From an uncultured Sphaerobacteraceae bacterium (GTDB lineage: Bacteria > Chloroflexota > Chloroflexia > Thermomicrobiales > UBA6265): a stretch of 64,000 bases of DNA. Of this stretch, positions 11,143-35,208 are shown piece after piece. The notes beneath the pieces were generated by a model that searched no databases, was not told the DNA's origin, and worked only from the letters and a program-made list of their open reading frames with translations. Made by a program: the position numbers and the translations under genes. The stretch is from the NCBI GenBank assembly GCA_964610045.1, contig CAZSUN010000006.1, positions 528-64,527 on the forward strand. Reading direction: 5' to 3'. Numbering within the stretch: position 1 is the stretch's first letter; the number at the start of each line of letters is the position of its first letter.

Positions 11143-11703
11143 ATGCGTGGACCATCGCGGAATCTGGAAATCAAGGTCTGCGTTGAAACAGCCGAATACG
11201 TGGCAATCGCGTCGCGACTCGACCAACTGGTATGCCAGCCATTGGTGACCATGATCCAGGTGGATCGGTATTACGAGGTCGCGCAGGGGCGGCTGAAGCT
11301 GCGAGAGATCGGCGACTCTGGATCAGGAATTTCTCGTGCCGAACTGATCGCTTATCGCAGACCGATGGAACATGGTTCCCGCTGGAGCGACTACGTGGTC
11401 GCTCCCGTGACGCTATCCAGCATCGAGGCGCTGCGGGAGGCACTCGCGGCGACACATACCGATGCCGGCACGGTGGAAAAGGACCGCACCGTCGGCATCA
11501 TCGGCAACACACGGGTGCATCTGGACACCGTGCATGGGGTGGGGCAATTCGTGGAACTTGAGACCGTGATCGCCGGTCAGTCCGAGGCGGCGGCACGAGC
11601 CGAACACGAACAGGTGATCGCCACGCTCGGGCTCGATACGTCCAGGGCGATTGCTGGATCGTATCAGGACATGATTTGGTCGAACGCGAAACCGGCACCC
11701 TGA
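11143..11703 (+). CDS. CYTH domain protein (class IV adenylate cyclase / triphosphate tunnel metalloenzyme family)
   Basis: N-terminal 'NLEIKV' (ExExK-type), 'RLKLREI' and 'RVHLDTVHGVGQFVELETV' fit the CYTH/CyaB pattern. CAGGAGG lies 9 nt upstream of the ATG at 11143. Confidence 0.75.
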   Translation: MRGPSRNLEIKVCVETAEYVAIASRLDQLVCQPLVTMIQVDRYYEVAQGRLKLREIGDSGSGISRAELIAYRRPMEHGSRWSDYVVAPVTLSSIEALREALAATHTDAGTVEKDRTVGIIGNTRVHLDTVHGVGQFVELETVIAGQSEAAARAEHEQVIATLGLDTSRAIAGSYQDMIWSNAKPAP

Positions 11704-11807
11704 TACATGCGTTCGGACAAGCAAGGCAATACGAAACAACGTGTGGTTGGGATTACACCCTACCGCGCTGTTCGAAACGTTCAAGGCGGTGAGAGGGGCA
11801 ACGAACG

Positions 11808-14800
11808 ATGGGCAGGTCTCGGGTGACTCGCGCGGCGGAAGGCAACGGAACGCGGCGACGTCGTGTCGCAGGATTGTCCAGGTTCCTGGTCATCCTGTTT
11901 GCCATCGTGTCGCTTGCTCCCGCGTTGGCGACCAATGTCTCTGCATCTCCGGAAGCATCGAACAATGGCCTTCCCGTGGCCTCCCAGGATGGAACATCAT
12001 CGCTGGAATTCGACGTGGTTCGCTGTCCCAACGACTACGATCCCAATGATCCTTTCGGTACCTGCACCGCTTTCGGGGTACCGAACGTGCCAGTACAGAT
12101 TACCTCGGTCGATCAGGCGCTGGCAGTCGACCTGACTGCTTCGACACAACAGGTGAGTGGCTCCGGTCCCGGGCGGGTTACATTCCAGGATCTGCCAGCC
12201 GGGGACTACCAGGTGACGGTAGGCTTGCCGCAGGAAGACGGCGTTCGGTACTCGATCTACTGTGGTATCGCGGGTGGCGGCACCCCCCTCCCGCCGACAC
12301 CTGACGATGCCTTGACGACGACTGTCAGTATCCCTGACGCCACGGCAGTTGCCTGCGACCTGTATATCGTCCCAACCGAGGTTCCCCAGTCCTCGATCGA
12401 TCTGTTTGCCTTCACCTGCGACGCCGGCTCGTTGCCGGAGAACGGTGACCGCGCGTTCGTCGATTTCGAAGATGCCTGTCCGACCGTTGCCGTCGCTGTG
12501 GAATTCAGTCTCTCCGAAAGCAACGGAACCAAGACCGTCCAGTCTACCGACGACACCGGCCGTACCCGTTTCGAGTTCGCGGCTGGCGCTTCGGTCAGGT
12601 TCTGGTCGGGAGTTCCGCTAGCGGCCGAAGAGTGGCTCTTCTGCTCGACAGGGCAGGGCGAGCCGCAGGAAATAGAGATCGACGAGCAAGGCGTTTCGAC
12701 CTTCGCCAACGACACCGCGATCGACCAGACATGCTCGTGGTATCTCGTCGAACAGCCAGAGGCGACGGAAGCGCCAACCGAGGAACCGTCTGCCACGGAG
12801 GAACCTGCGGCGACGGATGAGCCCACCGAAGCGCCTGTTGAGGGTGAATCCACGCTCGATCTGTTCGCCTATCTGTGTCCAGCCGGTGCGCTGGGCGATC
12901 CCGATGGCGCCGGATTCGGCGACTTCCAGTCCGCCTGCACCGACGTGTCCCCGGGCATTGAGTTTCACCTGAACACTGGCGACGAGTCACTGGTGCAGGC
13001 GACCGATGGCGATGGCCAGACGTCGTTCACATTCCAGCCAGGCAACCCGGTCGATTTCTACGCTGCCGTTCCGCTTGAGGCTGACGAGTACCTGTTCTGC
13101 AGCATCGACGATGGCGATGCTGCGCTTGTCGACATGGATGAGCAGGGTGTCGCGCATTTCGAAATCGAAACAGCCGTAGCGCGTACCTGTTCCTGGTTCC
13201 TCGTCGAGCAGGCAGCACAACCAACACTGGAGCCCACCGAAGAGCCGACGCTTGAACCCACCGAGCAGCCTGACGACGGCGCCGGACGTCCCGGAGCAGA
13301 ATTCGGCTGGATCACCGTCTCGCCTTCCGTGTGCCCGGTTGACTACACCGACGATCTCGTGTCGGTGGCGTTCGACGATCTCGTTGCGGATTGCGGCCTG
13401 TCTGCGGAGGGCATTTCGTTCACGTTCGGACTACCGGGTGGCGATTCGGTCGTCCGCGTCAGTGACGGATCGACTCCACTGGAGTTCGAGGATCTCAATC
13501 CCGGCACCTACACCCTCTACAGTTCAGTGCCCCTGGAAGCTGCCAGCGAGCGCCTCTTCTGCACGTCGGACGGCGGAAATCGCTACGAGAAGGAGTTCGA
13601 CAGCACGGGAGTGACCACGTTCAGCGATCTCCAAACCGAAACCATCGACTGCCAGTGGTTCGTGATCCCGACCAACCTGCGGGGCGACGAGACCGGCGGT
13701 TCGCTCGAAGTCCATCTCTCGCAATGTCCGGCTGGTTACGACGGCAGCACCCTGTTCGATGATTGTCACGGCAACGGACTCGACGGATACGACTTTACCC
13801 TGGAAGGCGAATCCGGCACGCAGTCCGGTTCGACCGAGGTGACCCAGGTTCCAGGGCCAGGCATCGTCAGTTTCACGAGTCTCACGCCGGATACCTACAC
13901 CTTGCGAGGAGGACCTCCCGGCGACTTCGGTACCGTCAAGCTCTTCTGCACGATCCAGCCCGACGGTAGCACGGCCGATTTCAGCCTTGACGGCGCGACG
14001 GCGACGGTCACCGTCGGCGAAAACCAGCACGTCCTCTGCGACTGGTATTTCATCCCGGATGAGCAGTCAGGGCAAACACCTACACCAACCGAGGAACCGC
14101 AACGTGCGGAAATACTGGTAACCCTCTTTGCCTGCCCCGCAACCACAAACGGCACCTACGGTGGAGCGACGCTGGACACACTTGCTGGCGACTGCACGGA
14201 GAAGGTGAATGACGTAACCTTCCGGCTCGGGCATCCGGACGAGGCTCCTTTGTCGGCAAAGACGGGGAGCTCGGGCGACGGCGCGGTCAGGTTCTACGAC
14301 CTCCTGCCTGGCGACCTGACCATGACGCCGTCCCTTCCGTCCAATCTCACCAGCCTGGCGGTGTTCTGCACGATCGACGATGGCGATCCTTACCAGAAAG
14401 CGCTGTCGAACGGCGGGACAACGTTCGTCGATGTCGATGGCGAGTCGATTGCCTGCAGCTGGTTCGCCGTGAAGGACCGCACCGAACCAGCGCCTTCTCC
14501 CACCGGGTCAATCACCATCCGCGAATACCTGTGCGACAAGGATCGCTCGGAAATCGTTGACTGGGACAAGGAATGCGTGGCCGGCGCCTCGGGAGCGTCG
14601 TTCACTCTGACTTCGGCGGCAACCGGCTCGTCGCAGACGGGAACCCCGAATACTCGTGGTGTGCATGTCTTTTCAGGACTCAGTGACGGCTATTACGCCC
14701 TGGTCCAGAACGAAGGAGCCTGGTGCCGTGCCGTCGCTGACCGCGTCGACGGAAAGAGCAGGGTTATCGTCAATGGCGGCGGCAATACCGATGTCGTGAT

Positions 14801-15044
14801 CTACCAGTGCGGTCCGGTTGAAGGGTTGCCAGTCACGGGAACAGGCACAACGATTCCGAACGATGGCATCGGAACCACCGGTGAGATCGGACGGAATGCT
14901 GCCATCGCCATGGGGATCGCCGCGCTCCCGATTGCGCTGCTGGGCACCTGGCGACGGCGACCTTTCTCTCGTTCCACCGCCGGATTGTCCCACCGGCAGC
15001 AGGGGGCTCAGGATAGTACCAGGATCCACAGGCGGTTCCGCTAG
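11808..15044 (+). CDS. secreted cell-wall-anchored protein: signal peptide, seven four-Cys repeat modules, LPVTG sorting signal
   Basis: The N-terminal signal is 'RFLVILFAIVSLAPALA'. LPVTG (nt 14826-14840) is followed by a hydrophobic stretch 'AAIAMGIAALPIALLG' and a basic tail 'WRRRPFSR..'. Modules contain 'G.V.F.DL.PG.Y.L'-type strands reminiscent of Cna-B/SpaA-like folds. Confidence 0.85.
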   Translation: MGRSRVTRAAEGNGTRRRRVAGLSRFLVILFAIVSLAPALATNVSASPEASNNGLPVASQDGTSSLEFDVVRCPNDYDPNDPFGTCTAFGVPNVPVQITSVDQALAVDLTASTQQVSGSGPGRVTFQDLPAGDYQVTVGLPQEDGVRYSIYCGIAGGGTPLPPTPDDALTTTVSIPDATAVACDLYIVPTEVPQSSIDLFAFTCDAGSLPENGDRAFVDFEDACPTVAVAVEFSLSESNGTKTVQSTDDTGRTRFEFAAGASVRFWSGVPLAAEEWLFCSTGQGEPQEIEIDEQGVSTFANDTAIDQTCSWYLVEQPEATEAPTEEPSATEEPAATDEPTEAPVEGESTLDLFAYLCPAGALGDPDGAGFGDFQSACTDVSPGIEFHLNTGDESLVQATDGDGQTSFTFQPGNPVDFYAAVPLEADEYLFCSIDDGDAALVDMDEQGVAHFEIETAVARTCSWFLVEQAAQPTLEPTEEPTLEPTEQPDDGAGRPGAEFGWITVSPSVCPVDYTDDLVSVAFDDLVADCGLSAEGISFTFGLPGGDSVVRVSDGSTPLEFEDLNPGTYTLYSSVPLEAASERLFCTSDGGNRYEKEFDSTGVTTFSDLQTETIDCQWFVIPTNLRGDETGGSLEVHLSQCPAGYDGSTLFDDCHGNGLDGYDFTLEGESGTQSGSTEVTQVPGPGIVSFTSLTPDTYTLRGGPPGDFGTVKLFCTIQPDGSTADFSLDGATATVTVGENQHVLCDWYFIPDEQSGQTPTPTEEPQRAEILVTLFACPATTNGTYGGATLDTLAGDCTEKVNDVTFRLGHPDEAPLSAKTGSSGDGAVRFYDLLPGDLTMTPSLPSNLTSLAVFCTIDDGDPYQKALSNGGTTFVDVDGESIACSWFAVKDRTEPAPSPTGSITIREYLCDKDRSEIVDWDKECVAGASGASFTLTSAATGSSQTGTPNTRGVHVFSGLSDGYYALVQNEGAWCRAVADRVDGKSRVIVNGGGNTDVVIYQCGPVEGLPVTGTGTTIPNDGIGTTGEIGRNAAIAMGIAALPIALLGTWRRRPFSRSTAGLSHRQQGAQDSTRIHRRFR
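11994..14810 (+). repeat. seven tandem ~100-130-aa protein-domain repeats (C..C..LFC..C-W pattern) with Pro/Thr/Glu linkers
   Basis: Module boundaries read from the sequence: 11994-12374, 12390-12755, 12849-13211, 13302-13670, 13698-14057, 14106-14474, 14508-14810. PTE-rich linkers lie at 12756-12848 and 13212-13301. Modules 2 and 3 are about 45% identical by hand alignment. Confidence 0.8.
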
Positions 15045-15209
15045 CGACTCGTGGTACAGTCGCGAATGGCGTGCTTCCGCCGCAAGGAGTGGCATCCGAT
15101 ACGCAGGCTCGCCACAGGCCCGCACTCGCCTTCGTGACGGATCAATCGCCTGGTATCGAGCGAGCAACATCCGACAGAATCGGTACATCGACACTGCCAG
15201 AGGGAGTTC

Positions 15210-16109
15210 ATGGCCTACCTATCACGCAGACGATTCCTTGGCCTGGTGGCTGGTATCGGCACCGGATTGGGCGTTGCCCGTCAAGCGGGTGCGATCAGCA
15301 CCTCGAACCTTCCCGAGTGGGGCGCGAGTGATGGCGCCACTGATCTCCAGGGCGGTCCGCTTGGACTCAATCTGGCGAGCGATCCCGGCCAGGTTCCGGT
15401 GGCGATCAGGATCCCGGACGCTGACGTTGACGCCGAAGTAGAAAAGCAGCAAATCGTCGACGGCCAGATGCTCGACCCGACCGGACCCTGGGTGGTGGCC
15501 TGGTACGAGCAGAGCGCCCGCGCCGGGGAAATTGGCAACATGCTCGGCTCCGGACACGTCGACTACTGGGGAGTCGGACCGTCCGTGTTCCGGAATGTCG
15601 CAGACCTCACTGAGGGAGCGCCGATCGAAGTCACGGGCAAGGGCGGTACGGTCTACACCTACGAAGTCGAATACGTCCGGCAAATCGAGCTCGCGACCGT
15701 CACCACGGAAGAGTTGAACTCGCCGGAGTTGGTTGGGCAGACCGATTACGCGGCGATCTCACTCATCACCTGCGGCGGAACGTTTGACTACGAGAATGGC
15801 GAGTACCTGTTCCGGGACCTGATCCGCGGGCGGCTCGTGTCTGCCTCCCGGCCGAGTGTGGAAAGTGGCGGCGAACCGGCGAACCAGGGACCGGATACCA
15901 GCGGCCAACAGGCGACGGTCAACACGGACAATGTCAACATGCGGTCCGCACCGTCGACCAGCGCCGAGGTGGTGCAGGTGCTCGCCAGCGGAACCGTCGT
16001 CACCATCACCGGCGATACCCAGGACGCCGATGGCTATACCTGGGCGCCGATCCAGCTTGAGGATTCGACCGCCGGCTGGATCGTAACCGACTTCCTGACA
16101 TCTGCCTGA
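15210..16109 (+). CDS. sortase (class E/F-like) with Tat-type N-terminus and C-terminal SH3b-like domain
   Basis: 'SRRRFLGLVAGIGTGLGVARQAGA' is Tat-like. His is in 'GSGHVDYW', the catalytic 'LITCGG' Cys is at nt 15771-15773, and a downstream Arg is in 'LIRGRLV'. The C-terminal 'VNTDNVNMRSAPSTSAEVVQVLASGTVVTITG...GYTWAPIQ...GWIVTDFL' is SH3_3-like (about 15906-16100). Confidence 0.85.
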   Translation: MAYLSRRRFLGLVAGIGTGLGVARQAGAISTSNLPEWGASDGATDLQGGPLGLNLASDPGQVPVAIRIPDADVDAEVEKQQIVDGQMLDPTGPWVVAWYEQSARAGEIGNMLGSGHVDYWGVGPSVFRNVADLTEGAPIEVTGKGGTVYTYEVEYVRQIELATVTTEELNSPELVGQTDYAAISLITCGGTFDYENGEYLFRDLIRGRLVSASRPSVESGGEPANQGPDTSGQQATVNTDNVNMRSAPSTSAEVVQVLASGTVVTITGDTQDADGYTWAPIQLEDSTAGWIVTDFLTSA

Positions 16110-16194
16110 TCGCGTCCAGTTCATTGACGGCTGGTTGGCTCCCGTGGATAATACCGACTGTTTTGGTCGGCTTTTCCACGGGAGTTCGAATTCC

Positions 16195-17226
16195 ATGGCA
16201 TGTCCTCCATCGCGTTCGCCCCTTTTGTCCATTGCACTCAACCGGCGCGCCGCTCTGGCTGGTGCAGCGATATCCGGTTCAACCTTGCTTGTGCCAGGTC
16301 ACGCGGCGGCGCGCCAGTCCACACCGGAATCGGGCTGGAGCTTCACCGACGACAAGGGTGTGACCGTCTCGCTCGATGCGATGCCGGCACGTGTTGCCGC
16401 CGACGTGAACGCCGCGGCACCCCTTTGGGACTTCGGGGTTCAGGCCCAGGCGGTGTTCGGGTGGAACGCGAGCGAATCCGGCGATTTCGGCGATGGCGGT
16501 GGCAACATCGACCCGGCAATGGTCGAAGTTGTTGGGGACATTTCCGAACCCATCAAGATCGAGCCGCTTGTGGCATTCGATCCTGACGTTGTCATAACCC
16601 TCACGTTCGTCCTCGACGACCCCGACGAGTACTGGAGCATCGACGCGGCGTTGGTCGACCAGGTTCGGGAGATCGCGCCGATCATCGCCATGTCGGGAAC
16701 AGGCAATGCGGCGGTCAATACGGAGCGCTTCGCCGAACTGGCAGCCGCACTCGGCGCTGATCTCGAAACCCCCGAATTGGTTGAGGCGCGGGAATTGTAC
16801 CTGGCAGCCACGGCCAATCTCGAAACCGTCGCGGCGGCATCATCGAACCTGACCATCCTGTTCGCCGGCATCGACGCCGAGGCGATGTATGTGGCCAATC
16901 CTCCCGACTGGCCAGACCTCAGCATGTACATGGAAATGGGCGTGAATGCAGTGATTCCGGATGCAGCGCCCGGCGACTACTGGGAATCGCTCAGCCTCGA
17001 GCAAGGTCTCAAGTACCCGGCCGACATCATCATGACCTCGACCAGGGGGGGATCGTGGCAGTTGGCGGACCTGGTCGACCACCCGGTCTTCAGTGCTCAT
17101 CCTGCCGTGAAGGCGGGTCAGGTGTACCCCTGGAACCAGGACTTCATCCAGAGTTACCAGGGCATGCGTGAAGCGATGGACCATCTCTCGGAGGTCCTCT
17201 CCGGATCCAGCGACATCGTGGAATGA
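16195..17226 (+). CDS. ABC transporter substrate-binding protein (type-II importer, siderophore/haem/B12 class), paralog 1
   Basis: Has a Tat-like 'LNRRAALAGAAISGSTLLVPGHAAA' and sits directly upstream of FecCD permeases. The ATG at 16195 follows GGGAG. The longer track start (16135) is unlikely. Confidence 0.8.
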   Translation: MACPPSRSPLLSIALNRRAALAGAAISGSTLLVPGHAAARQSTPESGWSFTDDKGVTVSLDAMPARVAADVNAAAPLWDFGVQAQAVFGWNASESGDFGDGGGNIDPAMVEVVGDISEPIKIEPLVAFDPDVVITLTFVLDDPDEYWSIDAALVDQVREIAPIIAMSGTGNAAVNTERFAELAAALGADLETPELVEARELYLAATANLETVAAASSNLTILFAGIDAEAMYVANPPDWPDLSMYMEMGVNAVIPDAAPGDYWESLSLEQGLKYPADIIMTSTRGGSWQLADLVDHPVFSAHPAVKAGQVYPWNQDFIQSYQGMREAMDHLSEVLSGSSDIVE

Positions 17227-17287
17227 GTTTTGCTCTCCGGACGTGTCGGATCGCACCCGCCTGCATGCACGAACAGAGGAGTTCGGG

Positions 17288-18298
17288 ATGAGTATTGGCT
17301 CACGAACGGTCAATCGACGTTGCCTGACGTTGGCAGCAGCAGGCGGCCTGCTGCTGGCAGGACGCGGAGCGCCTGGCGCAGCCAGCCAGGAGTCGTCGCC
17401 ATCGGCAGGCTGGAGCTTCACCGACGACCACGGCGTCACCGTGGAGCTTCCGGAGCTGCCCGCAAGAATTCTGGCGGATGTCAACGCGGCTGCTCCGCTC
17501 TGGGACTTCGGGATTCGTCCCCAGGGAGTCTTCGGCTGGAACGTATACGAGGACGGCACCTTCGGGGTTGCCGGCGGCAACGTCGATCCATCCCAGGTCA
17601 CGACCACCGGCAACGTTTCCGAGCCGTTCCAGCTCGAACCCGCGATCGCCTTCGACCCTGACCTGATCGTGACGATCACCTGGGCACCCGACGATCCGCT
17701 GGACTACTGGAGCATCGATGCGGACATCCTGCCCCAGGTGCAGGAGATCGCCCCAATAGCCGCGATCTCGGCGGTGGGCAGGGCAGACGTCAATACCCGC
17801 CGGTTCGCCGAACTCGCGTCGGCTCTGGGCGCCGATCTCACCGCGCCAGAACTCGTGGAAGCCAACTCCCGCTTTGAAACCGCCATCGAGGACCTGGCCG
17901 CCACGGCCTCGACACGCTCCGACCTCTCCGTCCTGTTCTTCTCCGCGGGGGCGGAAGGGTTGGTCGTGGCGAACCCACCCTACTGGGCCGATCTCAACTT
18001 CTACCTGGAGAGTGGGGTCAACGCCATCCTCCCCGATACCGCGCCGGGCACATTCTGGCAGGAGTTGAGCCTGGAACAGGCGCTGACCTATCCATCGGAC
18101 ATCATCATGGCCTCTGAGCGTCCGGGCTCCTTCCAATTGGCGGAATTGCAGGAGAATCCCGTCTACTCGCAGCATCCTGCTGTGAAGGCAGGTCAGGTTT
18201 ATGGGTGGAACCAGGACTTCATCATGAGTTACCAGGGTATGTCCGATGCCATCGAGCACCTGGTCGCGGTGCTCGATGGCGCTCAGAAGGCCACCTGA
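17288..18298 (+). CDS. ABC transporter substrate-binding protein, paralog 2
   Basis: 'VNRRCLTLAAAGGLLLAG' is the signal. It is collinear with paralog 1 ('GWSFTDD.GVTV', 'ADVNAAAPLWDFG', 'HPAVKAGQVY.WNQDFI.SYQGM'). AGAGGA lies upstream of the ATG at 17288. Confidence 0.8.
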   Translation: MSIGSRTVNRRCLTLAAAGGLLLAGRGAPGAASQESSPSAGWSFTDDHGVTVELPELPARILADVNAAAPLWDFGIRPQGVFGWNVYEDGTFGVAGGNVDPSQVTTTGNVSEPFQLEPAIAFDPDLIVTITWAPDDPLDYWSIDADILPQVQEIAPIAAISAVGRADVNTRRFAELASALGADLTAPELVEANSRFETAIEDLAATASTRSDLSVLFFSAGAEGLVVANPPYWADLNFYLESGVNAILPDTAPGTFWQELSLEQALTYPSDIIMASERPGSFQLAELQENPVYSQHPAVKAGQVYGWNQDFIMSYQGMSDAIEHLVAVLDGAQKAT

Positions 18299-18351
18299 CG
18301 CCGTGAGTCCAAACATCCACATCCACCGGCGAAGCGCTCGGCAGGACTGCC

Positions 18352-19407
18352 ATGGCACGCGTTGACGCCATCGAACCGATGATTGCCGCCGGTGGAACCC
18401 GCTGGTGGCAACTTCGACTGAGCAAGCTGGCAGGACTGATCCTGCTGCTGGCTGCAGCGGTGATCGTCTCGTTGCTGAGCCTGAGGTTCGGCTCACTCTC
18501 GATTTCAACGAAGAATGCCGTCGACGCCATCTTCAACTACAACCCCGATGTCTACGAGCAAACCATCGTCCGGGAACTGCGTGTACCGCGGACGCTTATC
18601 GCCCTGAGTGTCGGGGCGGGACTCGCCGTCGCGGGCACCGTGATGCAGGCGGTGACGCGAAATCCTCTGGCGGACCCTTCTATCCTGGGTGTCAGCCAGG
18701 GCGCGAGCCTGGCGGTCGCAATTTCCGTGACATATCTCGGTATGTCCAATCCCAACGAGTACGTCTGGATGTCGTTCGCTGGCGCATTGCTGGCGTCGCT
18801 CCTGGTGTTCATGGTGGGGAGCGCGGGTCACGGTGGCGCTTCCCCGGTCAAGCTCGCCCTGGCAGGGGTGGTGGTTTCCGCCATGCTCGGAGCCTGGAAC
18901 AGCACGATTCTGCTCATGAACGAAGACACGATGGATCGGGTCAGGTTCTGGTTGGCGGGTTCGGTTGCAGGCCGTGAGCTCGACACACTTTGGGCAGTCG
19001 CGCCGTTCCTGTTCCTGGGTACCGGCGCCTGCCTGCTCCTCGGTCACCAACTCAATGTTCTCAGTATGGGTGACGAAAGCGCTCGCGCGCTCGGCATGAA
19101 TACGACCCGGATACGCGTCACCGCTTCGCTGCTGGTGATTTTCATCACCGGAGCATCCGTTTCGGTCGCGGGTCCGATCGGGTTTGTCGGGCTGGCGACG
19201 CCTCATATGGTTCGTGCCGTGATTGGCCCGGACAATCGGTGGGTGCTGGTGTATTCGCTCGTGGTCGGCGCGATCCTGCTCACAGGGGCCGATGTTGCCG
19301 GTCGCATCGCCACCCGACCCTCGGAACTCCAGGTTGGTATCGTCACCGCGCTGGTTGGGGCGCCGTTCCTCGTGATGCTGGCTCGACGGACAAGGTTGGC
19401 GGACTAG
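18352..19407 (+). CDS. FecCD-family iron-siderophore/haem/B12 ABC permease
   Basis: 'LRVPRTLIALSVGAGLAVAGTVMQAVTRNPLADPSILGVSQGASL' is the FecCD signature. The protein is multi-TM. Confidence 0.9.
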   Translation: MARVDAIEPMIAAGGTRWWQLRLSKLAGLILLLAAAVIVSLLSLRFGSLSISTKNAVDAIFNYNPDVYEQTIVRELRVPRTLIALSVGAGLAVAGTVMQAVTRNPLADPSILGVSQGASLAVAISVTYLGMSNPNEYVWMSFAGALLASLLVFMVGSAGHGGASPVKLALAGVVVSAMLGAWNSTILLMNEDTMDRVRFWLAGSVAGRELDTLWAVAPFLFLGTGACLLLGHQLNVLSMGDESARALGMNTTRIRVTASLLVIFITGASVSVAGPIGFVGLATPHMVRAVIGPDNRWVLVYSLVVGAILLTGADVAGRIATRPSELQVGIVTALVGAPFLVMLARRTRLAD

Positions 19408-19408
19408 C

Positions 19409-20470
19409 GTGGCAGCAGTTACCGAAACCACCATCTTCACTTCACGACCGGGTCACCGGACCATTCGGTTCGGGTCCATTGCGGTGCGCGTCAACCTGCG
19501 CGCCATTGCGTTCTCAGTGATCGCCCTGGCAGTGCTGGCCCTGCTGATGATCTGGGCAATTACCCTTGGTGCGTTCTCGATCCCGTTTCCGGATGTCGTC
19601 AAGGCGTTGGCCGGCAACGGCACGGATGACACCGAAATGGTGGTGCGGACCCTGCGGCTGCCGCGTATTCTGGTCGCCGTGTTCTGTGGCGCGGCGCTGG
19701 CGATGTCCGGCGCGATCTTCCAGGGTATCTCCCGGAACCCGCTCGTTTCTCCCGACATCATCGGAATCGACTCGGGCGCCACGCTGTTCGCGCTGGTGGT
19801 CATGATCATCGGGGTCGGCGATGTCGGCGTACCCCTGGCGGCGTTCCTCGGTGCTGTCCTGACCGCGTTCACGATCTACTCGCTATCCTGGAAGAACGGC
19901 ATCTCCATGAACCGCCTGATCCTCGTCGGGATCGGGGTTGGGGCAGTGGTTGACGCCGGCTCGACCTACATGACCGTGAAATTTCCGATCGAGATCACGC
20001 GACCTGCAATCGTCTGGTCGATGGGGTCGTTCTATGCAGTCAATTGGGACGATGTCGTGTTGCTCGGCGGTGCTGTTGCGATTCTCGGGCCACTCGCAAT
20101 CATCCTGATGGAATCGCTGCGCACCATGCAACTCGGCGATATCGTCACCCGTAGCCTGGGTATCCGGCTTGAGCAGACACGCCTCTCCCTTATCGTGATC
20201 GGTTGCGCGCTGGCGGCCGTCTGCGTGTCCCTGGCGGGACCAATCGGGTTTGTCGCCCTGATCGTTCCGCATATGGCCAGGATGCTGCTGGGAGCCCCTT
20301 CGGCGAGTGTGCTCGTTTTCACGGCAATCCTGGGAGCAATTCTGATGCTGATATCCGATACTGTAGCTCAGCATTTGCTGCCGGTGACGCTGCCGGTCGG
20401 CGTGGTCACCGGAGCAGTCGGTGCACCGTACTTCCTGTTCCTGCTCTACCGCACCAACATCCGCTCGTAA
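19409..20470 (+). CDS. FecCD-family ABC permease (second subunit)
   Basis: 'LRLPRILVAVFCGAALAMSGAIFQGISRNPLVSPDIIGIDSGA'. The GTG start is 1 nt after the preceding stop. Confidence 0.9.
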   Translation: MAAVTETTIFTSRPGHRTIRFGSIAVRVNLRAIAFSVIALAVLALLMIWAITLGAFSIPFPDVVKALAGNGTDDTEMVVRTLRLPRILVAVFCGAALAMSGAIFQGISRNPLVSPDIIGIDSGATLFALVVMIIGVGDVGVPLAAFLGAVLTAFTIYSLSWKNGISMNRLILVGIGVGAVVDAGSTYMTVKFPIEITRPAIVWSMGSFYAVNWDDVVLLGGAVAILGPLAIILMESLRTMQLGDIVTRSLGIRLEQTRLSLIVIGCALAAVCVSLAGPIGFVALIVPHMARMLLGAPSASVLVFTAILGAILMLISDTVAQHLLPVTLPVGVVTGAVGAPYFLFLLYRTNIRS

Positions 20471-20490
20471 TCGAGGAGCCCGCAACGCCC

Positions 20491-22143
20491 ATGTTCCAGC
20501 TTCGCGCCGATGCTGTATCACTGGCCTACGATGCTCGTCCCGTCGTGCATGACTTCTCGCTCGACATCGAGGAAGGGAAAGTAACGACCATCATCGGGCC
20601 GAACGGGTGCGGCAAGTCCACCGTACTTCGGTCGATGGCTCGCCTGCTGCGTCCAACCAACGGTGCGGTCTACCTGGACGGCGCCGCGATTCACACCATG
20701 CCGTCCCGTGATGTCGCGAAACGGATCGGCCTCCTGTCGCAGACAGCCCAGGTGCCGGAAGGCGTAACCGTCGAGGATCTCGTCCATCGGGGCCGTTACC
20801 CGCACCAGGCGTTCCTCCAGCCGCCGTCCCGGCAGGACACGATCGCCGTCCACAAGGCCATCGATCTCGCTGGAATGGGCGATCTCCGCCTTCGCGCGGT
20901 CAACGAGCTCTCGGGAGGCCAGCGCCAGCGTGCCTGGATCGCGATGGCACTGGCCCAGGAGACGCCGATTCTTCTCCTCGACGAGCCAACAACCTACCTC
21001 GATCTCGCCCACCAACTCGAAGTCATGGAGCTGGTCGAACGACTCAATCGTGAAGAGGGCCGCACCATCGTGATGGTTCTGCACGACATCAACGAAGCCG
21101 CCAGGGTCAGCCACCGGATTGTGGCGATGCGGGAAGGCCGGATCATCGGCGACGGGTCCCCTGCGGAAGTCCTGACCCCGGAACTGCTCTCGCGATTGTT
21201 TGGTGTCGAGTGCGACGTTATCGCGACCGAATCGCAAGACCAGACCCGCGGGTACTGCATGCCACGCTCGATGGCTGGCTGCGAATGTCTCGAACGCAAG
21301 GGAACGAAACAGGGCTTTGAGATCGATCGGGTCGCCACCGGGTACGGGAAGTCGATCATTTCCAGCGATCTGTCCATGACGATCCCGGGTGGAAAGATCA
21401 CCGCCCTCGTCGGTCCGAACGCCTGCGGCAAGTCGACCCTGATGCGCACCTGCGCCAGGCTCCAGAAAATGGGAGCCGGCACGATTCACCTCGATGGTCG
21501 CAGCATTGGGTCAGGCTCGCACAAGGAACTGGCACGACGGCTCGCCTTGTTGAGCCAGGATCCGAGCGTGCCGGGTGACATCCTGGTTGAGGACCTCGTG
21601 CTCGCCGGGCGCAATCCCCATCAGGGATTCCTGCGCCGATGGTCTGCCGATGACGAAGCGATCGTCAACTGGGCGATCGAGACCTGCGGGATCGCCGAGT
21701 TCAGGTTCCGGCCACTTGGCTCATTGTCCGGTGGCCAGCGTCAACGGGCCTGGATCGCCATGTCACTGGTGCAGGACACGGACGTGCTTTTACTCGACGA
21801 ACCGACGACGTTCCTCGACATCGCCTCGCAGGTGTCCCTCCTCGATATCATCTGGAAGCTCAACCGGGAACAAGGGAAGACGGTGGTGATGGTTATTCAC
21901 GACATCAACCTTGCCGCCAGGTATGCCGACCACATCATCGCCATGCGCGATGGCAAGGTGATCGCCCAGGGAACGCCCACCACGGTCGTGACCTGCCCGC
22001 TGATGCGCATGATTTTCGATATCGAATCCGATGTGTTGCGACATCCCGAACTAGGTACACCGCTCATGATTCCGCTCCGGACAGCCAGCTCCGGGCAACT
22101 GCCACCGGCGATGGGTTCGCCGGTGGCAGTTGCTGCCGGCTAA
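20491..22143 (+). CDS. fused double ABC ATPase (two complete FecE/FepC-like cassettes in one polypeptide)
   Basis: Walker A occurs twice ('GPNGCGKST' at about 20596 and 'GPNACGKST' at about 21412). The signature 'LSGGQRQR' and Walker B 'LLLDEPT' each occur twice. The second cassette starts at about nt 21316. The ATG at 20491 follows GAGGAG. The track ORF (from 20203) runs through the permease gene. Confidence 0.9.
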   Translation: MFQLRADAVSLAYDARPVVHDFSLDIEEGKVTTIIGPNGCGKSTVLRSMARLLRPTNGAVYLDGAAIHTMPSRDVAKRIGLLSQTAQVPEGVTVEDLVHRGRYPHQAFLQPPSRQDTIAVHKAIDLAGMGDLRLRAVNELSGGQRQRAWIAMALAQETPILLLDEPTTYLDLAHQLEVMELVERLNREEGRTIVMVLHDINEAARVSHRIVAMREGRIIGDGSPAEVLTPELLSRLFGVECDVIATESQDQTRGYCMPRSMAGCECLERKGTKQGFEIDRVATGYGKSIISSDLSMTIPGGKITALVGPNACGKSTLMRTCARLQKMGAGTIHLDGRSIGSGSHKELARRLALLSQDPSVPGDILVEDLVLAGRNPHQGFLRRWSADDEAIVNWAIETCGIAEFRFRPLGSLSGGQRQRAWIAMSLVQDTDVLLLDEPTTFLDIASQVSLLDIIWKLNREQGKTVVMVIHDINLAARYADHIIAMRDGKVIAQGTPTTVVTCPLMRMIFDIESDVLRHPELGTPLMIPLRTASSGQLPPAMGSPVAVAAG

Positions 22144-25127: not shown

Positions 25128-26429
25128 ATGACGCTCAATCGTCGCCAGCTCCTGACAGCCAGCGCAGGTTCGGCCCTCCTCCTGACAGTGCCCGGTACCT
25201 ACACCTTCCGCTCGGCACTGGCGCAGGACCCAACAGTGATTCGTTGGTGGCATATCACGACCAACGAAGACCAGGCCGCCCTGATGCAGGCTGCCGCGGA
25301 TGCGTTCGTCGAGGCGAATCCTGAGGTGGAGATCGAGATCACCGTCCAGGAAAACGAAGCATTCAAGGCCCGCCTCACCACCGTGATGCAATCTGGTGAT
25401 CCGCCGGATGTCTTCCAGAGTTGGGGCGGTGGCGTCCTCTACCAGTATGCGGAAGCCGGACTGGTACGCGATTTGACCGACGCCCTCGCCGCCGATGGCT
25501 GGGGTGCCACGTTCGGCCAATCAGGACTCGCGCTCTACGGAACAGACGGCCGGAACTACGGCGTGCCGTGGAACATCGGCATGGTCGGATTCTGGTACAG
25601 CAAGGCGAAGTTTGCCGAAGCCGGTATCGAAACGCCTCCCGCCACCTGGGCGGAACTCCTGACCACAGTCCAGACATTGAAGGATGCCGGCATCGTGCCG
25701 ATCTCCCTCGGCGGGGGTGACAAGTGGCCAATCCACTTCTACTGGGTCTACCTGGCCATCCGCAACGGCGGCAAGGCGGCGTTTGACGCTGCCTACACAC
25801 GATCCGGCTCCTTCGCCGATCCGCCGTTCGTCAAGGCAGGATCCGACCTGCTCGAACTCTCGGCACTCGAACCGTTCCAGGACGGGTATCTCGCGGCGAC
25901 CTGGCCGGATTCCGGCGTGGTCTATGCGAACGGCGGCGCGGCGATCATGCTCATGGGCCACTGGTTCCCGTCCGGCGCGCTGGACGCCAACCTGGAAGAC
26001 CCAACCGCGATGCGCGAGGATCTCGGCTGGTTCCCGTTCCCAACGGTCGACGGTGGCGCCGGCGCCCCGAACGATGTCCTCGGCGGCGGCAACGGATTCG
26101 CCGTTGGCTCGAACGCCCCGGATGCCGCCATCGAGTTCGTGAAGTACCTGACCAGCGTCGAGGTGCAGTCGGAATGGGCTGCGGCCGGATTCGCGGTTCC
26201 GCCGGCCGTGACCGATGCCGCGTCGGCCGTCACCGACCAGAATCTGCTTCCAGTGATGGACTACCTGGCGGAAGCGGGCTACTTCCAGCTCTACTACGAC
26301 CAGTTCCTGCCACCCGCCGTTGGCGGTGTGGTCAACGACGAAGTCCAGGCGCTGATCGCCGGTTCGCAGACGCCGGAAGGCATGGCCGAAGCCGTCGAAG
26401 CATCGTTCGCCATGGAGTCTGACGGATAA
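25128..26429 (+). CDS. sugar ABC transporter substrate-binding protein
   Basis: 'MTLNRRQLLTASAGSALLL' is a Tat-like signal. AAGGAG lies 7 nt upstream of the ATG at 25128. The body is family-1 SBP-like ('WWHITTNEDQ', 'FQSWGGG'). The track ORF from 24921 is over-extended. Confidence 0.85.
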   Translation: MTLNRRQLLTASAGSALLLTVPGTYTFRSALAQDPTVIRWWHITTNEDQAALMQAAADAFVEANPEVEIEITVQENEAFKARLTTVMQSGDPPDVFQSWGGGVLYQYAEAGLVRDLTDALAADGWGATFGQSGLALYGTDGRNYGVPWNIGMVGFWYSKAKFAEAGIETPPATWAELLTTVQTLKDAGIVPISLGGGDKWPIHFYWVYLAIRNGGKAAFDAAYTRSGSFADPPFVKAGSDLLELSALEPFQDGYLAATWPDSGVVYANGGAAIMLMGHWFPSGALDANLEDPTAMREDLGWFPFPTVDGGAGAPNDVLGGGNGFAVGSNAPDAAIEFVKYLTSVEVQSEWAAAGFAVPPAVTDAASAVTDQNLLPVMDYLAEAGYFQLYYDQFLPPAVGGVVNDEVQALIAGSQTPEGMAEAVEASFAMESDG

Positions 26430-33266: not shown

Positions 33267-33284
33267 GCGCACAATCGAAGATAT

Positions 33285-33570
33285 CATCGGCGTTGATCGG
33301 AACGAGTAGGCATCGGAACACGATTGGAAGCGAACCGGGGGAGGTGGAAGCCCGGTGGATCGTGGATGCTGAATGGATCCGGGAGTCTTGCCCCGAAACA
33401 CCCTGTGTGGAGTAGACGGCAACGGTGTCTCCCCCGTTACCGGGAGCCTCGTATCGGAAATCCACGTGATTTCCCGTACGGTTTGAGTGGACAGCGGCAA
33501 CGCTGTCAATGAGGGTGGCACCGCGGTACGGCATCGAGCCTCCGTCCCTTGTGGGATCGGAGGTTTTTTG
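33285..33570 (+). promoter_or_regulatory. T-box riboswitch leader, Trp specifier (UGG)
   Basis: Stem I has 'UGAUCGGAACGAGUA', an AG bulge 'AGCGAA' and a distal loop 'GGUGGAA'. The specifier 'UGAA-UGG-A' places UGG at 33374-33376. The T-box core is 'GAGGGUGGCACCGCGG' (33511-33526). The terminator is CCUCCGUCCC-UUGU-GGGAUCGGAGG followed by UUUUUU (33539-33569). Confidence 0.85.
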
Positions 33571-33609
33571 ATGCCGTTTTTGCGTGGCATCCACGAAGGT
33601 GAGGATTAC

Positions 33610-35208
33610 ATGGTGGCACAGGTTGAGCACAGGACAAACCGGGCCAGGCATGGCATCAGTCCGGGTATCGACGAGGTTCGTGACATTGCCAGGACGTCCG
33701 AACCATCCACAAGGATGATTCCGATCCATCGCGAGATCCTGGCCGATCTCGAAACCCCCGTTTCGGTCTATCTCAAGGTCAGTGATGGATGCCGGAAACC
33801 CGGATTCATCCTCGAATCAGTCGAGGGTGGGGTCCGGATCGCCCGCTACTCGTTTATCGGCGCCAGCCCAATGGCGACGGCAACCTTGCGGGACGGCACG
33901 ATCTCGATCCAGGGACGTTCAGGCCTCCAGGAAGCCAACTACGACGATCCGCTCACAGCGCTTGGCGAACTCATGCGCGAGTATGGTGCGGAGCGGCACC
34001 CGCACCTGCCGCGAATGACTGGAGGGGCCGTCGGCTACCTCTCGTACGATGCGATTTCGAAGTTCGAACCGCGGGTTCCTCTCGCCAAGGGTGCGGGTCT
34101 GGGGTATCCGGAAGCACAGTTTCACATTGCCGACACCCTGGTGGTGTTCGACCATATAGACCGCGTGATGAAGGTTGTCTCCCACGTCCGGTTGCACGAC
34201 GGCGATGACCTCGAGACTGCATACGATGAGGCCGTCTCCCGGATTGATGCCCTCACCGAGATCCTGAAATCGGAGCCGACTTCCTATCCCATACGAGCGA
34301 ACCGCCATGACGCTCCCGTGGTCGACCGGTTCCGGCCGAACACCAGCCCCGAGCGGTACCGCGACATCGTCAACCGGGCCAAGCAGTACATCCATGAAGG
34401 GGACATCTTCCAGGTTGTCCTCTCGCAACGGGTCGACATAGATACCGATGCCCATCCATTCACGATCTATCGTGCATTGAGAATGGTCAATCCTTCGCCG
34501 TACATGTTCTTCCTCGACTTCGGCGAACACCAGGTCGTGGGGGCGTCGCCGGAACTTCTCGTCAGGCTCGAAGATGGAGTCGTGACCAATCACCCGATCG
34601 CTGGGACCAGGCCACGGGGCGAGTCTGCCCAGGAAGACGAGCAACTTGCGATCGACCTGCTGGCGGACGAAAAGGAGCGGGCAGAACACCTGATGCTCGT
34701 GGACCTGGGACGCAACGACGTCGGCCGGGTTTCGAAACCCGGGTCCGTGCGCGTTCCCAAACTCATGGAAATCGAGCGCTTCTCCCATGTCATGCACATC
34801 GTCAGCCACGTCGAAGGCAATATCGCCGATGGCTACGACGGTTTGAGTGCGCTGCGGGCATGTTTCCCGGCGGGCACCGTGTCCGGCGCACCCAAGATCA
34901 GGGCGATGGAAATCATTGCCGAACTTGAGACTGACAAGCGAGGAGTCTACTCCGGCGCCGTCGGCTACCTCGACTTTGCCGGAGGCATGGATACGTGCAT
35001 TGCCCTCCGCACGATGGTGGTGAAGGACGGCGTCGCCTCGCTGCAAGCCGGAGGGGGGATCGTCGCCGACAGTTCACCGGAAGGTGAGTTCGCCGAGAGC
35101 TTTCACAAGATGCGTGCGCTGGTCCGGGCGATCGAGCGGGCAGAGAACATCGAAGCGTCCAGCCCTGGCGAACAGAACGGAGCGGATCATGATCTTCCTC
35201 CTGGATAA
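33610..35208 (+). CDS. trpE: anthranilate synthase component I
   Basis: '[10 protein letters not shown]', 'IFQVVLSQR', 'NPSPYMFF', 'GAVGYL' and '[11 protein letters not shown]'. The ATG at 33610 follows GAAGGTGAGG. The track ORF from 33487 reads through the T-box terminator. Confidence 0.9.

Follow-up and report, generated by a model that had tools for sequence, protein, structure and literature searches.

The 64,000-nucleotide stretch analysed here, referred to as the window (positions 528 to 64,527 of contig CAZSUN010000006.1, assembly GCA_964610045.1, from an uncultured Sphaerobacteraceae bacterium), contains a gene for a sortase that carries a C-terminal SH3b domain and follows, on the same strand, a gene for a surface protein with an LPVTG sorting motif. 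The sortase-SH3 gene occupies positions 15210–16109 (+) and, from the open reading frame (ORF) list and the sequence, encodes 299 residues from an ATG start codon, preceded by a Shine–Dalgarno-like GAGGGAG (15197–15205, +) whose GGGAG lies 4–5 nt upstream of the start. Its identification drew on the ORF itself, Pfam, the NCBI sortase class models, homologues, an AlphaFold2 (AF2) model and Foldseek. A preliminary description of the gene had proposed a sortase exported in the folded state by way of twin-arginine translocation (Tat) and retained at the wall by a peptidoglycan-binding domain. The strings on which it relied were all located, comprising SRRRFLGLVAGIGTGLGVARQAGA (residues 5–28), GSGHVDYW (His116), LITCGG (Cys188), the interdomain linker and NMRSAPS...GYTWAPI...GWIV. 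Cys188 is the sole cysteine of the protein, and neither a lipobox, a second hydrophobic segment nor a C-terminal helix was found within its 299 residues. The ORF and its two-domain architecture are real, far beyond chance.

Domain architecture and the partner gene

The sortase catalytic domain (residues 61–213; 15390–15848, +) was matched by Pfam Sortase (PF04203, MEROPS C60) over residues 66–197 at 55.9 bits (threshold 26.6; E = 4.6e-15). His116 (SGHVDYW), Cys188 (LITCGG), Arg202 and Arg206, encoded at 15555–15557, 15771–15773, 15813–15815 and 15825–15827 (+), are invariant across 83 aligned homologues, which bears out the H / TCGG / R core named in the preliminary description, and the enzyme would be expected to catalyse transpeptidation of a sorting motif. 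Among the NCBI sortase class models, class F (NF033748) ranked first with 83 bits (E = 1.7e-23), followed by class E (30.8) and class D (14.6). The class F score is half of the curated cut-off of 166; by these profiles the enzyme is a divergent class-F-like sortase rather than a certified member of that class.

The AF2 model, built on the 83 homologues, had a mean predicted local distance difference test (pLDDT) score of 84.6, with both domains above 90 (the catalytic domain for the most part) and low confidence at residues 1–45 and linker residues 220–228. When this model was compared with the PDB using Foldseek, only sortases of classes E, A and C were returned, with probability 1.0 and E-values down to 2e-9. 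None of these matches extended over more than 191 alignment columns, against 299 residues in the protein, and no top-ranked solved structure included both domains. Ahead of the catalytic barrel the model places a β-hairpin (strands 46–49 and 52–55) containing GPLGLN (residues 49–54; 15354–15371, +), of which Gly49, Leu51 and Gly52 are invariant.

The catalytic domain is joined to the C-terminal domain by a flexible linker rich in Pro, Gly, Ser and Glu, RPSVESGGEPANQGPDTSGQQAT (residues 214–236; 15849–15917, +), with pLDDT below 50 at residues 220–228 and with both length and sequence differing across the sortase-SH3 family. The SH3b domain (residues 240–296; 15927–16097, +) was matched by Pfam SH3_3 (PF08239) at 47.2 bits (threshold 27; E = 2.5e-12) and was modelled as a small all-β fold of seven strands over residues 234–298 at pLDDT 90–98. 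Within the 83 homologues Arg245, Trp278 and Gly289 of this domain are invariant and Trp290 nearly so. The nearest solved relatives of the family SH3 profile were 4krt (a clostridial autolytic lysozyme with repeated SH3 domains), 9kz1 (an N-acetylmuramoyl-L-alanine amidase) and the phage lysins 5d74 and 6akv, in all of which the SH3 domains are wall-targeting modules of peptidoglycan hydrolases. The SH3_3-like domain that had been described behind a Pro/Gly/Ser linker is thus present, the C-terminal region is homologous to wall-binding domains, and the domain would be expected to bind peptidoglycan.

The gene preceding the sortase (11808–15044, +) encodes its probable cognate substrate, a surface protein of 1078 residues (weak Pfam matches to SdrD_B, 40.5 bits, and SpaA, 38.9 bits) with a general secretory (Sec)-type signal, seven modules of ~140 residues that resemble prealbumin, SpaA and SdrD_B domains, and a C-terminal sorting signal. 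Its 28 cysteines fall into seven groups of four, one per module (pattern ...CPxGYD...C...), which suggests two disulfides in each prealbumin-like module. The sorting signal consists of the LPVTG motif (residues 1007–1011; 14826–14840, +) and an 18-residue hydrophobic segment, AAIAMGIAALPIALLGTW, followed by RRR and a tail of 30 residues ending in ...IHRRFR (together 14898–15041, +). This tail (14952–15041) is unusually long at ~30 residues, ordinary sorting signals stopping soon after the basic residues. Its C-terminus is kept in the substrate orthologues, most of which end in ...MRF[RK] and others in ...YRYR, with ...HRRFR in the window.

A substrate orthologue (35–57% identity over 280–1130 residues; total length 560–1190 residues) stands directly upstream, in the same orientation, at 29/29 assessable loci; four further SH3-type loci with no upstream substrate (L002, L008, L026 and L031) end at a contig edge. 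All orthologous substrates bear ...YQC...LP[S/N/D/T/V/A]TG. The sortase-SH3 gene is one half of a conserved two-gene cassette with an LPxTG substrate. A scan of 11400–16500 returned no terminator, the gap between the two genes included, and a single promoter-like site, at 16124, downstream of the sortase gene, and no DNA tandem repeats were found in 11800–16200. The sortase is followed by an ATP-binding cassette (ABC) importer of the iron-siderophore type (16135–22143), comprising two Peripla_BP_2 binding proteins, two FecCD permeases and a double ABC ATPase. An Isd-like iron-uptake locus was considered and rejected, as iron-transport genes occur near none of the 29 related cassettes, and the adjacency of the importer is probably coincidental. 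Elsewhere in the window, at 33284–33552 (+), Rfam RF00230 matches a T-box leader with 97.3 bits against a gathering score of 93. It directly precedes an ORF for anthranilate synthase component I (listed at 33487–35208); presumably it responds to tryptophan and controls trpE.

The pairing of enzyme and substrate genes is like that of pilus loci and the substrate modules are of SpaA/SdrD_B type, both of which would suit an enzyme that links SpaA-repeat protein molecules to one another in the manner of a class C polymerase, or to some other protein, with the SH3b domain serving only to localize it. The automatic name of fused relatives described below, 'SpaA isopeptide-forming pilin-related protein', points the same way. 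Fibre assembly is nonetheless improbable, given that the YPK pilin motif is absent from the 1078-residue substrate, that each cassette has one structural gene and that the same genomes show SH3-less sortase paralogues but no obvious second pilin.

Database searches with the whole protein retrieved 855 homologues at E ≤ 1e-3, and Sortase together with SH3_3 was found on all of the best 120 clusters. Existing names are automatic, either 'sortase' or 'SH3 domain-containing protein [Thermomicrobiales bacterium]'. A locus scan restricted to one genome per species found 134 relatives, of which 80 were kept; all 80 are from metagenome-assembled genomes (MAGs) labelled Thermomicrobiales, Sphaerobacteraceae, Chloroflexia or Chloroflexota, save L023 and L055, which are two contigs of one 'uncultured bacterium' MAG. 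Judged from these labels, the Sortase plus SH3_3 architecture is a conserved Thermomicrobiales trait that is common and in databases yet uncharacterised. The preliminary description had not recognised this architecture among characterised sortases, and a literature search likewise found, among the papers it covered, none on an SH3-bearing sortase, a Tat-exported sortase or substrate–sortase fusions, though the architecture is not rare in databases. The parts are familiar and already annotated automatically; their combination is real, conserved and mechanistically suggestive.

The N-terminal signal

Residues 1–28 (15210–15293, +) are predicted to form a Tat-type signal peptide cut after Ala28, as indicated by TIGR01409, family statistics and conservation at positions −3, −1 and +1. 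The n-region MAYLSRRR is followed by the hydrophobic (h-) region FLGLVAGIGTGLGVA and the c-region RQAGA, after which the chain continues with IS. The twin-arginine motif S-R-R-R-F-L-G (residues 5–11; 15222–15242, +) matches the Tat consensus [ST]-R-R-x-F-L-K at 6/7 positions. The h-region is uncharged and just 15 residues long, five of them Gly, with a maximum Kyte–Doolittle (KD) hydropathy over 10 residues of 1.9, and the c-region contains Arg24 before Ala26-Gly27-Ala28. When the first 50 residues were scanned alone, TIGR01409 (TAT_signal_seq, NCBIfam) matched with 18.4 bits against a cut-off of 16.7, and the weaker matches of the same fragment were to N-termini of known Tat substrates. In the aligned homologues, position 28 (−1) is Ala in 82/83, position 26 (−3) is restricted to Ala, Val, Thr, Leu, Ser or Ile, and position 29 (+1) is never Pro. 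Such a conserved −3/−1 site for signal peptidase I makes cleavage likelier than a permanent anchor, for which the site is needless, and the N-terminal signal is probably cleaved rather than kept in the membrane.

The literature describes the majority of characterised sortases as bound to the membrane (PMC13251363), and this favours a different arrangement in which the twin arginines (RR) and h-region remain uncleaved as a type II N-terminal anchor, as in sortases of classes A, B, E and F, with the SH3b domain as an extra wall contact. Tat-inserted, weakly hydrophobic spans with C-terminal positive charges are also known (PMC5449189). An anchor is unlikely here, given the brevity and Gly content of the uncharged stretch, the Arg24 that follows it, the retention of the −3/−1 site by the family and the n-, h- and c-regions of the Sec-type orthologues described below, which are proportioned like those of signal peptides and not of anchors. 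Sequence prediction assigns the mature enzyme no membrane anchor, neither an N-terminal signal-anchor nor a C-terminal helix. The cleavable Tat-type N-terminus ending in A-x-A that had been proposed is supported at the level of sequence, by the conserved A26-x-A28 site and a match to TIGR01409 that appears with the first 50 residues but not with the full-length protein, and the uncleaved anchor that would have spoken against it is not what the short, Gly-rich h-region, Arg24 and the conserved site predict.

Signal types were compared among 98 full-length orthologues, divided according to whether RR stood next to the h-region and tested by Mann–Whitney. RR-type signals, present in 70/98, had a maximum 10-residue KD hydropathy of 1.85 ± 0.20 and a Lys or Arg in the c-region in 71% of cases. 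The remaining 28/98 (for example MTQRIRQWFLPLLASLVVLVGLSAGVAA, with the cut before NSG) reached 2.74 ± 0.18 and never had a charge in the c-region; the difference in hydrophobicity was pronounced (p = 1e-14). In these predicted properties the two groups differ just as Tat and Sec signals classically do, which marks the segment as an export signal that switched type during evolution. Export of the sortase in the window would then depend on Tat.

Several observations weigh against this conclusion. TIGR01409 was absent when the full-length sortase-SH3 protein was scanned, the N-terminal 50 residues gave no match to Pfam TAT_signal (PF10518), and a close homologue reached just 14.4 bits on that model against a cut-off of 22.7. 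High genomic guanine-plus-cytosine (G+C) content favours Arg over Lys in n-regions, so that RR alone is weak evidence of Tat dependence (PMC10924467), and the present genome, at 62% G+C, is subject to this bias. A tblastn search with E. coli TatA and TatC, covering the window and 82 fetched loci, detected neither tatA nor tatC. Finally, since ~30% of the orthologues (28/98) bear hydrophobic Sec-type signals, Tat export, and with it export in the folded state, is not required by the family.

These observations raise the possibility that the RR pair is a by-product of high G+C content and that the protein is an ordinary secreted sortase, exported by Sec and cleaved. In addition to the 28 orthologues that are clearly of Sec type, the missing Pfam TAT_signal match and the compositional caveat (PMC10924467), a separate group of 28 fusion proteins described below places the catalytic domain behind large Sec-exported proteins with no membrane segment, which implies that this domain can cross the membrane unfolded. 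Sec export of the sortase in the window is nevertheless rather unlikely. The motif is a full S-R-R-x-F-L and extends beyond RR alone, TIGR01409 scored above its cut-off with the first 50 residues, the presence of RR goes closely together with weak hydrophobicity and a basic c-region residue, and [STN]RRx[FLM][LIA] is kept at 13/13 internal positions in a second group of fusions. Of the folded export that had been proposed for the enzyme, the RR-type signal features stand for this protein, whereas the Sec-type signals of 28/98 orthologues show that it is no requirement of the family.

RR-type signals were also present on three solute-binding proteins in the window, two of Peripla_BP_2 type (16195–17226 and 17243–18298) and one of SBP_bac_1 type (25128–26429), which start, in order, with NRRAALAG..., NRRCLTLAA... 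and LNRRQLLTASAG.... Tat-like signals appear to be common among the exported proteins of this organism, and the RR signal of the sortase is in part a habit of the lineage.

Substrate–sortase fusions and the wider clade

A search with the catalytic part alone (residues 45–215) against 1.84 billion representatives gave 6163 matches, of which 841 were below 1e-10. SH3 domains were present on 9 of the best 150 representatives. Fusions were counted on the 148 of these best 150 that had not already been retrieved, and 44/148 were large proteins of up to 2359 residues that end in the sortase domain, preceded by SpaA/SdrD_B repeats, the same kind of repeat as in the substrate from the window. In these fusions a [YFW]P[ND]TG motif lies 37–157 residues ahead of the sortase domain. 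P0189 corresponds to GenBank MCO5218606.1, 'SpaA isopeptide-forming pilin-related protein [Thermomicrobiales bacterium]', and its 90% cluster holds proteins of 1683–1687 residues on four independent MAG contigs of 33–108 kb. Two further fusion ORFs were confirmed on DNA, and one fusion C-terminus has at least 18 homologues. The fusions are real ORFs.

The fusions differ in the segment that joins motif and enzyme. In 28/44 there is no hydrophobic segment between the motif and the sortase domain (gap 37–117 residues); substrate and sortase are here parts of a single secreted chain, which may process itself. Members of this group include P0147, P0157, P0159, P0163–P0166, P0172–P0174, P0176, P0178, P0208, P0224 and P0247, and the same form was seen at locus L082:1744-3204. 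In 13/44 the motif has the form [YF]P[ND]TG, and behind it come, in order, a short hydrophobic segment, [STN]-R-R-x-[FLM]-[LIA] (often SRRxFLK), a Gly/Ala-rich segment, A-x-A with Gln directly after the cut, and the sortase domain; the group comprises P0162, P0167, P0168, P0171, P0175, P0177, P0187, P0189, P0190, P0194, P0218, P0241 and P0252, with a further example at locus L081:22-1755. The internal segment of P0189 alone scored 22.6 bits on TIGR01409, above the cut-off. The remaining 3/44 have a hydrophobic segment with no such RR motif.

The join in the group of 13 may be a dual Sec/Tat membrane hairpin. Dual Sec/Tat membrane proteins combine spans of low hydrophobicity with C-terminal positive charges (PMC5449189), and the hairpin variants would fit these rules. 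This group also bears on the uncleaved-anchor alternative considered above. RR and h-region stand directly behind the hydrophobic segment of the sorting signal, where a second membrane span is possible, and a hairpin at this point would keep the sortase beside its substrate; to that extent these 13 proteins speak for a membrane-held enzyme and against a released one. The two genes in the window look like the split form of a substrate–sortase fusion: in the fused form a single element serves both as the RRR tail that closes the sorting signal and as the RR n-region with which the sortase begins.

Two relatives combine the sortase domain with other modules, P0154 (690 residues) with a YkuD L,D-transpeptidase and a VWA domain, and P0150 (439 residues) with two SH3_3 domains. 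The same genomes also carry SH3-less paralogues (loci L035–L080) of 210–250 residues that end right after the barrel. They have Tat- or Sec-type signals whose A-x-A ends precede Gln, and no C-terminal anchor, and no adjoining LPxTG gene was found at the fetched loci.

A motif resembling LPxTG is present inside the enzyme itself. LPEWG (residues 34–38; 15309–15323, +) lies 82 residues before the catalytic His, and in the 83 homologues Leu34 is kept in 80/83, Pro35 in 83/83, Trp37 in 75/83 and Gly38 in 76/83, with x free; in the AF2 model the pLDDT for residues 30–50 is just 58–67. In 43/44 SH3-less paralogues a [MLVI]P[TS][TS]G motif, in the longer form G[ED][MLV]P[TS][TS]G[GA]xRPGP, stands at a fixed 79–81 residues before the catalytic His. 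So constant a distance suggests that the motif acts within the molecule, be it as a pseudo-substrate 'lid' or as a site of self-processing. The pseudo-substrate idea was found to be unsupported, as the x of LPxWG does not track the x of the substrate LPxTG and deep-branching members keep LP alone.

A broader and more tentative reading is that the enzyme in the window belongs to a Thermomicrobiales clade of cis-acting, wall-resident sortases that have largely given up the free, membrane-anchored mode and have their substrates tethered to the enzyme; we regard this as possible but doubtful. Were it correct, a fusion from the group of 28 could cut and transfer the protein to which it belongs, LPxWG may be a built-in pseudo-substrate or pro-peptide, and the cassette in the window would be the two-gene version, a self-regulated sortase that loads a single partner onto mature peptidoglycan.

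Proposed mechanism and comparison with known systems

The mechanism that we favour for the cassette is a dedicated class-F-like sortase for the upstream LPVTG protein, exported by Tat, cleaved, and held in the wall by SH3b; taken as a whole, this chain is on balance likely, if not firmly so. The sortase would be made with a twin-arginine signal peptide, be exported most likely via Tat and be cut by signal peptidase I after Ala28. The mature enzyme would have no membrane segment and would comprise the catalytic barrel (His116, Cys188 and Arg202/206), the flexible linker and the C-terminal SH3b domain, which would keep it in the peptidoglycan layer and may place it beside the acceptor amine. The substrate would leave the cell through Sec, with its sorting signal keeping it in the membrane. 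Cleavage of LPVTG between Thr and Gly by the sortase would then yield a thioester at Cys188, from which the protein would pass to a wall amino group. Because such an enzyme is not bound to the membrane, its acceptor may be mature peptidoglycan instead of lipid II. That other members of the clade also bear wall-related partner domains (two SH3_3 domains, or YkuD with VWA) was counted in favour of this mechanism.

Some general properties of the two domains are less easily accommodated. SH3b domains can also bind ligands besides peptidoglycan. The acceptor of characterised sortases is lipid II in the membrane (PMC8225981), which an enzyme resident in the wall would reach less easily. Such an enzyme, kept away from lipid II, might be short of acceptor, and its main activity could then be hydrolysis of the sorting signal, freeing the adhesin rather than attaching it. 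As exemplified by S. aureus SrtA, sortases do hydrolyse their substrates in vitro if no nucleophile is offered. Shedding of this kind is very improbable, as the wall-binding domain, the strict catalytic Arg and the conservation of the cassette are easier to understand under wall attachment, and no result points specifically to release.

If the proposed wall-attachment mechanism is correct, the cassette would offer a natural case in which to test if sortases are able to act within the wall, on mature peptidoglycan, and a defined enzyme–substrate pair for a class-F-like sortase. The enzyme would be the first candidate Tat-exported sortase, complementing the Tat-dependent sortase substrates already described (PMC10924467). 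The substrate–sortase fusions, if self-processing, would represent surface proteins that anchor themselves, a type not seen before, and an order that is in part thermophilic might thus supply ligation tools that are compact and free of an anchor.

Of the known sortases, those of class F (prototype Propionibacterium acnes SrtF) are alike in giving the best class model, in the His-Cys-Arg core, in an LPXTG-type motif and in a high-G+C monoderm host. The physiological roles of class F are still unknown (PMC13251363). The enzyme described here differs in its C-terminal SH3b domain, in an N-terminus that reads as a cleavable Tat signal and in being strictly paired with a single substrate gene, SrtF by contrast having been described as a housekeeping sortase.

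Class C (pilus) sortases have a cleaved N-terminal signal peptide and are anchored by a C-terminal transmembrane helix. A cleaved signal is predicted for the present enzyme too, and both share a gene position beside SpaA-type substrates and a conserved segment with an aromatic residue N-terminal to the barrel, the 'lid' DP[WFY] of class C and LPxWG here. In contrast to class C, SH3b occupies the place of the transmembrane helix, the substrate has no pilin motif, and the identity in Foldseek alignments is about 20%. Wall-targeting SH3b domains of peptidoglycan hydrolases, among them the lysostaphin/ALE-1 type, the clostridial autolysin 4krt and the phage lysins 5d74 and 6akv, are likewise of the SH3_3 family and C-terminal behind a flexible linker; their partners are hydrolases that cut the wall, whereas the partner here is a transpeptidase that adds proteins to it.

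Twin-arginine signals are found on other wall-acting proteins of high-G+C or Gram-negative bacteria, including E. coli AmiA and AmiC, and Tat-dependent sortase substrates with LPXTG or LAETG motifs were described from Streptomyces in 2024 (PMC10924467), such that the two pathways, Tat and sortase, can meet. In those cases it is the substrate and not the sortase that bears the Tat signal, and no Tat-dependent sortase enzyme was reported there.

Periplasmic L,D-transpeptidases of the YkuD family (ErfK/YbiS/YcfS) are cysteine transpeptidases that are exported in soluble form and frequently carry domains for wall binding; they attach Braun lipoprotein covalently to mature peptidoglycan. Their fold and recognition motif are unrelated to those of the sortase, but they are a functional analogue of the mode proposed for it, and in P0154 a YkuD domain is fused with this very type of sortase domain.

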